This document shows, one piece after another, positions 3,001 to 3,393 of a DNA stretch of 64,000 nt (position 1 is the stretch's first letter; every line of letters begins with the position of its first letter). The stretch is from the NCBI GenBank assembly GCA_039621445.1, contig CP154954.1:32961455-33025454 (forward strand), read 5' to 3'. The translations under genes were made by a program, and so were the position numbers. The stretch comes from Euglena gracilis (lineage: Eukaryota). Below the pieces are notes generated by a model. That model did no database searches. It was not told the DNA's origin and was given only the letters and a program-made list of their open reading frames with translations.

Positions 3001-3393
3001 CTGCCCCAATCAGTTTGTGGCATTTCTGCTTGAAGCGGATGGCAGCGCACCTTGACCCGGGCCAGCCGCATCCGCAGCACGGCCCCCCGCCACACGGGCT
3101 GGATGCGGTGGCACGCTGCCTCGGACCCCAGGAATTCCTGAAGGGGGGTCCCGCCAGCCAGCCTGCCGGAGGTGCTGGCCTGGACCAGACACTCCCCTGG
3201 GGGGTCTGTGGCCCGGCTGGGAGCTGCCGGCTGGGGAAAAGGTGCTGGCTGGTTGCCCCCCCCCCCCAGGTGGTAGGGTGAGGGTCCAATCCGAAGAAAT
3301 TCCTGCTCGTACCGCCGCCGCCACTCTTCCCACCGCTCCGCCGCCCGCCGCCGCCGCTCCGCCACCGCGCGGCGCACCGCCAGCCGCCCGCCC
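1..3393. repeat. Left arm of a long inverted duplication (partner ~44935-48337)
   Basis: Collinear reverse-complement match across exons and introns, with scattered substitutions and small indels. It reaches the window edge. Confidence 0.97.

Follow-up and report, generated by a model that had tools for sequence, protein, structure and literature searches.

The nonconventional introns of Euglena carry the signature 5'-N3CDG-/-CH'GN5-6|R, which was derived from knock-ins in E. gracilis (Nomura et al. 2025, PMC12501133). According to the available parts of that paper, E. gracilis splices synthetic 50-bp introns that carry nothing else than this code, the code proved enough to splice all tested introns, natural as well as synthetic, a 6-nt (+1) 3' spacer is tolerated at a transcript level 30-40% lower, and making the 3-nt 5' spacer 1 bp longer or shorter abolished splicing of the EaNC-INT1 reporter. 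A pyrimidine|purine dinucleotide at both junctions is a further property of these introns (review PMC11282704). Their origin from MITEs was proposed in 2014 by Milanowski et al. (PMC3935182), in a paper which also states that transposable elements had not been identified in euglenid genomes. The available text of a 2024 paper (PMC11170887) belongs to the context of the same hypothesis, and in 2025 the origin of nonconventional introns was still called unclear in the accessible sections of two papers (PMC12501133; PMC12621601). In the full-text literature we found no paper with a defined Euglena transposon family having both intron and free copies.

Introns that arise from transposons are described in other lineages. 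The introners of Micromonas, Aureococcus, Polarella and Symbiodinium are, in the available part of the preprint by Roy et al. (10.1101/2020.10.14.339549), non-autonomous DNA transposons with TIRs and duplications, some Polarella classes having 8-nt duplications and functioning in either orientation, and the spliceosome excises them at G[T/C/A]...AG sites that are recruited in part from the duplication. The non-canonical introners of Amoebophrya (Farhat et al. 2021, via the excerpted review PMC11282704) have non-canonical borders, TIRs and short direct repeats. Here we analyse an element at positions 3128-3305 of the window, by which we mean the whole 64-kb stretch of DNA under study. Unlike this element, the Amoebophrya introners have repeats of 3-5 nt and belong to the lineage Syndiniales, according to the same excerpt of PMC11282704. 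As with introners, the transposon at 3128-3305 would become an intron upon insertion; unlike theirs, removal of the predicted intron at 3308-3123 would follow the CAG/CTG hairpin rule of Euglena.

The closest resemblance in splicing is to the euglenid nonconventional introns (PMC12501133, PMC3935182): as read from its sequence, the predicted intron 3308-3123 lacks GT-AG and has CAG at +4 to +6 and CTG followed by a 6-nt spacer, together with a purine at the exon start, pyrimidine|purine junctions, paired ends and slidable direct-repeat borders, in the same host genus. It differs from those in print in that the predicted intron is a transposon copy which can be dated, has kept its 8-bp duplication almost whole and has free relatives. 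As a transposon, the element resembles the MITEs of the hAT superfamily in its 8-bp duplication, short TIRs starting CAG(G), small size, lack of coding capacity and the occurrence of intact beside decayed copies. Maize Ds elements, which are of the hAT type, are reportedly spliced out of exons as de novo introns (Giroux et al. 1994); removal of Ds is said to use cryptic spliceosomal sites and to be imprecise. The shared point would be that RNA processing takes a hAT-type element out of an exon, whereas removal of 3128-3305 with one duplication copy would be exact.

A MITE and its relatives in the window

The sequence at 3128-3305 is a real TIR/TSD transposon copy, a MITE (Table 1). In minus-strand reading its inverted ends are CAGGAATT/AATTCCTG, and the order across 3305..3128 is CGGCGGTACGAG, CAGGAATTTCTTCGG...CTTCAGGAATTCCTGG and GGTCCGAGGCAG. 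The ends and the 7/8 flanks that the initial annotation had assigned to an intron at 3308-3123 are confirmed by this reading (duplication GGTACGAG/GGTCCGAG), and the bracketed G that it had set before the second flank corresponds to an extra G at 3128, between CCTG and GGTCCGAG. The terminal stem consists of 11 uninterrupted base pairs, 3305-3295 (CAGGAATTTCT) with 3139-3129 (AGGAATTCCTG), and the MFE and centroid RNA folds both contain it; in total folding energy the intron (3308-3123) is no better than shuffles (z = 0.33). The body contains a G12 run and CCAGCCAGC motifs in both arms, and Rfam gave 0 matches in the 64-kb window. As a contig (3276-4654) of an independent DNA run crosses from the interior of the element over its junction, the insertion is not an artefact of the window assembly. 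Summed DNA-contig depth is 989 and 3327 in the bins of the element against ~77-140 in unique bins, a rough measure which gives no copy number and hints that pieces like this are numerous in the genome.

Table 1. Coordinates of the element, its relatives and the SNAPC3 gene in the window
Feature	Coordinates	Strand	Evidence
Non-autonomous element, 178 bp	3128..3305	(-)	inverted ends, TSD, terminal stem, body alignment
TSD copy 1, 8 bp, GGTACGAG	3306..3313	(-)	sequence reading
TSD copy 2, GGTCCGAG, 7/8 vs copy 1	3120..3127	(-)	sequence reading
Predicted nonconventional intron, 186 nt	3123..3308	(-)	code fit
Upstream open frame, Arg/Glu-rich, candidate coding	3309..3470	(-)	ORF and codon-position GC
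Downstream open frame to a stop, candidate coding	2985..3122	(-)	strict IQ motif 3104-3063
Segmental duplicate of element with both flanks, 99.5%	45015..45209	(+)	blastn, duplication alignment
Free copy, 5' half only, abuts (TATG)n microsatellite	53943..54050	(+)	blastn, masked test, alignment A1
Decayed free copy	26575..26697	(-)	blastn, masked test, alignment A1
Intact related element, 500 bp	55046..55545	(+)	TIR/TSD scan, masked test
SNAPC3, complete, 13 exons/12 introns	27463-40725	(-)	transcript-derived protein P0001
SNAPC3 intron 2, 2384 nt, positive control	37242..39625	(-)	transcript-derived protein P0001
MITE nested in SNAPC3 intron 1	39866-40129		CAG...CTG, duplication 6/8
MITE nested in SNAPC3 intron 5	34518-34822		CAG...CTG, duplication 8/8
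MITE nested in SNAPC3 intron 6	33906-34205		CAG...CTG, duplication 8/8

A second copy lies in a 3.4-kb inverted duplication (1-3393 vs 48337-44935, 95.6% identity). This copy, 45015-45209, includes both flanks and lies inside the duplication, and is thus a segmental copy and not a separate insertion; these two copies are the only ones in an intron-like position in the window. In the duplicate the G run is one longer (G13 vs G12), which gives a predicted intron of 187 nt, and the upstream frame is truncated at 44935 and out of register by 1 nt. The inverted duplication may extend past the window start, and a DNA contig of run X1 (~2830-3232) has the bases of the second duplication copy at 2945 and 3109.

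Dispersed relatives were sought by blastn of the element against the 64-kb window. The initial annotation had reported matches to the body at ~53943-54035 and 26696-26610, and both were recovered, at 53946-54033 (77.8% over 90 nt, E 1e-11) and 26662-26593 (80.3% over 71 nt, E 3e-11), along with a match at 55038-55155 (67.5% over 123 nt, E 8e-8). G/C runs and CCAGCC repeats abound in these sequences, which would favour an explanation of the likeness by chance or low complexity, and the initial annotation had itself raised the doubt that the alignment might be no better than chance once such runs are masked. We therefore deleted all G or C runs of at least 4 and compared local alignment scores with those of 3000 random 150-nt segments of the window, known copies of the element being left out of this null. 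The copies at 53943 and 26560-26710 scored 25 and 30 respectively, values equalled by 0/3000 segments in each case, and the element and its relatives have ordered blocks in common (alignment A1). Chance likeness is thus unsupported with the runs deleted, and we regard it as extremely improbable.

The third match belongs to an element with a perfect 16-bp TIR, CAGGGAATTTCTTAAG (16/16), and a perfect 8-bp duplication, GGTGCCAC, which has its TIR and left subterminal region in common with the element at 3128-3305. In the masked test its left end scored 19 (equalled by 0/3000), only a borderline match since the null maximum was 18, and its right end scored 14, which 216/3000 segments equalled and which is not significant. 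The copy at 26575-26697 has no recognisable duplication and sits ~770 nt past the end of the SNAPC3 coding sequence. In total, the 64 kb contain two independent dispersed copies and one related element, which supports the existence of independent relatives of the 3128-3305 element at non-coding-looking places in the window. The initial annotation had gone on to propose that one family supplies both introns and ordinary insertions; this is supported in part, as a predicted intron with free relatives was found, and the case comprises one predicted intron copy and two decayed free copies. A metagenome scan with a 20-base family motif gave 33 loci, among which there were 0/33 relatives; the 6/33 that gave blastn matches did so over only 23-26 nt of the motif region itself. 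The window also has large, related TG/CA and GGTGGGT-type microsatellite arrays at 17886-18420, 20566-20836, 24392-24922 and 61329-61474, with a mutual identity of 75-100%.

A scan for CAG...CTG inverted ends (at least 11/14 matching positions) between 8-bp flanks that agree at 7/8 or 8/8 positions recovered three clean further elements (33906-34205, 34518-34822 and 55046-55545), each with a perfect 8-bp duplication, while ten shuffles gave 0, 0, 0, 0, 0, 1, 0, 0, 0 and 0. Their bodies are unrelated to that of the element at 3128-3305, the left end of 55046-55545 being the borderline case, so that the same type of end and the same duplication length occur in several families. Removal of each of the other clean elements in turn gave nothing convincing by way of open frames spanning them. 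The hAT elements are characterised by an 8-bp target duplication and TIRs starting CAG(G), and on these two traits we take the window elements to be hAT-like, as a lead only; other superfamilies also make 8-bp duplications. The target preference of hAT elements is nTnnnnAn. The duplications read at 3306-3313, 39626-39633, 55038-55045, 34510-34517, 33898-33905 and 39858-39865 have A at position 7 in 6/6 cases and T at position 2 in only 1/6, a pattern reminiscent of that preference, in a tiny sample with an arbitrary choice of strand.

The splicing code in the SNAPC3 gene

The window contains a complete gene for SNAPC3 (snRNA-activating protein complex subunit 3). Pfam detects pieces of this protein in two minus-strand ORFs, and a 54-residue exon query retrieved one protein, P0001, which is eukprot EG_transcript_14475; names of the EG_transcript form follow the usage of the E. 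gracilis transcriptome paper, as far as its available part goes. In tblastn P0001 covers 40725-27463 at 84-100% per HSP, and with two more short exons that we located the gene has 13 exons. The rebuilt coding sequence has 1152 nt and encodes 381/384 residues identical to P0001; a PDB search with exon B of the gene gave 0 matches. The introns defined by P0001 range from 232 to 2384 nt. Seven of the 12 fit N3-CDG...CH'G-N5/6|R, a single one (30558-30289) is GT-AG, with a C-rich tract, and the remaining 4/12 have other nonconventional, non-GT-AG forms. Because the protein maps with 381/384 residues and 7/12 introns fit, we conclude that the host is a euglenid which uses the code. By the same mapping the window is nuclear DNA of E. 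gracilis or of an extremely close relative, and a dinoflagellate, Amoebophrya or a prasinophyte, which had been considered as hosts, are rejected.

Intron 2 of this gene serves as a positive control. Its structure is GAG-CAGGGCTG...CAGCCCTG-GGGAC|G, with a TIR and a perfect 8-bp duplication, GGGACGAG, and the direct repeat extends to 13 nt, with 13 equivalent border positions. This intron still looks like a fresh insertion. Its family differs from that of the 3128-3305 element, and blastn at E 1e-6 found no relative of it in the window. Thus the proposal that CAG...CTG elements with 8-bp duplications become introns in Euglena gains independent support from SNAPC3 intron 2. In the other 11 introns the duplication matches at 0-5/8 positions, near chance, and these are either old or of another origin.

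Three further MITEs are nested within SNAPC3 introns (Table 1), with their ends off the intron borders. Two of them have relatives at 61004-61096 and 54651-54822, and those at 34518 and 39866 have internal sequence in common, as judged by eye. Intron 10 (29938-30169, minus strand) has AC..GT borders, a CGGCCG/CGGCCG pairing and spacers of 4 nt on the 5' side and 6 nt on the 3' side; its 4-nt 5' spacer departs from the 3-nt 5' spacer of the code.

Fit of 3308-3123 to the code, and its flanks

On sequence grounds, the predicted intron 3308-3123 is exactly what the nonconventional-intron code predicts, and it shows all the features that euglenid nonconventional introns have at the sequence level. 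At 3308-3303 the 3-nt spacer GAG is followed by CAG, and at the other end CTG (3131-3129) is followed by the 6-nt spacer GGGTCC; the downstream exon starts with a purine (G at 3122), both junctions are pyrimidine|purine, and the ends beside the motifs pair over the 11 uninterrupted base pairs of the terminal stem. Removing 3308-3123 rejoins TAC|GAG GCA in frame. By itself the code is too permissive without TSD or stem filters, for over the whole window 3262 candidates fit it on one strand and 3430 on the other, compared with ~1700-1900 in one-strand shuffles. Taken as a whole, the explanation that the MITE at 3128-3305 acts as a predicted nonconventional intron by the code of Euglena is the one we favour and consider rather probable. 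A point against it is the 6-nt 3' spacer, which is the less efficient form.

A different kind of intron could be envisaged at the same place, namely a conventional spliceosomal one derived from an introner like those of Micromonas or the dinoflagellates, with the duplication providing a splice site. Some dinoflagellate introner classes do have 8-nt duplications, according to the accessible part of the Roy et al. preprint, and there is a GT inside the first duplication copy (3312-3311). However, around the element the frame is kept by 0/12 GT-AG pairs and by 4/28 GC-AG pairs, whose donors lie 33-36 nt upstream, and the host is a euglenid. We hold this alternative to be very improbable and do not class the element with the introners, its borders having failed the test for spliceosomal sites.

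The initial annotation had called the flanks IQ exons, a description for which we found weak support. The window has strict IQ motifs at 3104-3063 and in the duplicate of this site, and at least one such motif also occurs in 6/20 composition-matched shuffles of the window. The ORF flanking the element has no match in Pfam, no homologue in two word-indexed protein searches, though the same tool retrieved the SNAPC3 transcript protein when queried with the 54-aa exon, and 0 matches among 1.84 billion cluster representatives scanned exhaustively with HMMER. At this locus each of the three minus-strand frames stays open for 236-321 aa, and ORF length therefore says little. The frame of the IQ ORF has the best codon score of the three, and GC at codon positions 1, 2 and 3 of the upstream frame (3309..3470) is 0.87/0.65/0.98; this codon and GC3 test is weak, for the best score of the element lies in the ORF frame as well. 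Attempts to link the IQ frame to the next upstream ORF gave 289 frame-compatible intron candidates and are not discriminating. We put the chances that the flanks are coding exons at about even.

Transcription was examined by mapping three RNA runs of the same species and one DNA run on 1-12000. RNA depth was about 0.4-1x and, over 2801-3600, 0-1x per run, and at so thin a coverage there was no RNA joint among the best 15 of the 202 joints. Position 3109 is covered by RNA reads, 5 in run X21 and 2 in run X24. Most RNA reads at this position carry the bases of the second duplication copy, so that either copy, 1-3393 or 44935-48337, may be the transcribed one. Given transcription, we expect with fair confidence that the 3308-3123 copy would actually be spliced.

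An alternative is an ordinary MITE insertion that forms no intron of any gene and lies in DNA that is non-coding or pseudogenic; the IQ frames would then be due to chance in GC-rich sequence, and the fit to the code would be generic to this type of transposon. Such an account would be in keeping with a flanking ORF that has neither homologue nor domain, with the recurrence of the motif in shuffles and with the openness of all frames at the locus; moreover, all clean CAG...CTG elements of the window, those between genes among them, pass the intron-code scan, and the duplicate at 44935-45209 is clearly a truncated, frame-shifted fragment. On the other hand, RNA reads do cover 3109, excision restores the open frame exactly, and upstream of the IQ frame, at 5672-9908 on the same (minus) strand, there are several ORFs that match leucine-rich repeats weakly (Pfam E 2.6e-4 to 0.01). 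The best codon score in the ORF frame and the upstream GC3 of 0.98 also speak against it, weakly, as the element scores best in that frame too. On balance we judge an ordinary MITE unlikely, if still deserving of serious consideration.

It is also conceivable that the element is exonised, i.e. retained unspliced in the mRNA as an in-frame insertion of 62 residues. Its 186 nt are a multiple of 3 and contain no stop in the ORF frame, a combination with a ~7% chance in an unconstrained insert, as estimated from base composition, and the 6-nt spacer lowers splicing efficiency. Yet the code sufficed in all introns, synthetic or natural, that were tested by Nomura et al., as reported in the available text, and the length of the insert is set by a G run that is polymorphic (G12 in this copy and G13 in the segmental one), on account of which the multiple-of-3 length looks incidental. 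Retention thus appears quite improbable to us.

Insertion, duplication and spacer lengths

We propose that excision by the Euglena code would come about as follows. A MITE of 178 bp with CAG...CTG ends inserted at this site, making an 8-bp target duplication. The Euglena rule calls for 3 nt and then CAG, a complementary CTG and then 5-6 nt, a purine at the exon start and paired ends, and the 3-nt and 5-nt spacers are the last 3 and the first 5 bases of the two duplication copies. Since 3 and 5 sum to the 8 bp of the duplication, excision would take the element with one copy and restore the pre-insertion sequence. For a CAG...CTG element with an 8-bp duplication, removal at the RNA level would work in either orientation. 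The 186-nt intron 3308-3123, with its 6-nt 3' spacer, would be excised from any minus-strand transcript crossing it.

This raises the possibility, which we advance tentatively and regard as doubtful, that nonconventional splicing is the exact reversal, at the RNA level, of the insertion of one transposon superfamily, and that the 3-nt and 5-nt spacers exist because of its 8-bp duplications. In the full-text literature we found no paper in which the spacer rule is traced to 8-bp duplications, a question to which the sliding-distance distributions of PMC12501133 (Fig. 1B; SI Fig. S3) may be relevant.

[quoted passage not shown] It also suggests a testable reason, the 8-bp duplication, for the 3+5 spacer rule of the code. 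If the reversal reading were true, every CAG...CTG element would be born as a ready-made, orientation-independent intron, the nonconventional introns, ~70% of those of Euglena, would be the decayed remains of such insertions, and the machinery that splices them may derive from, or have evolved alongside, a factor recognising transposon ends.
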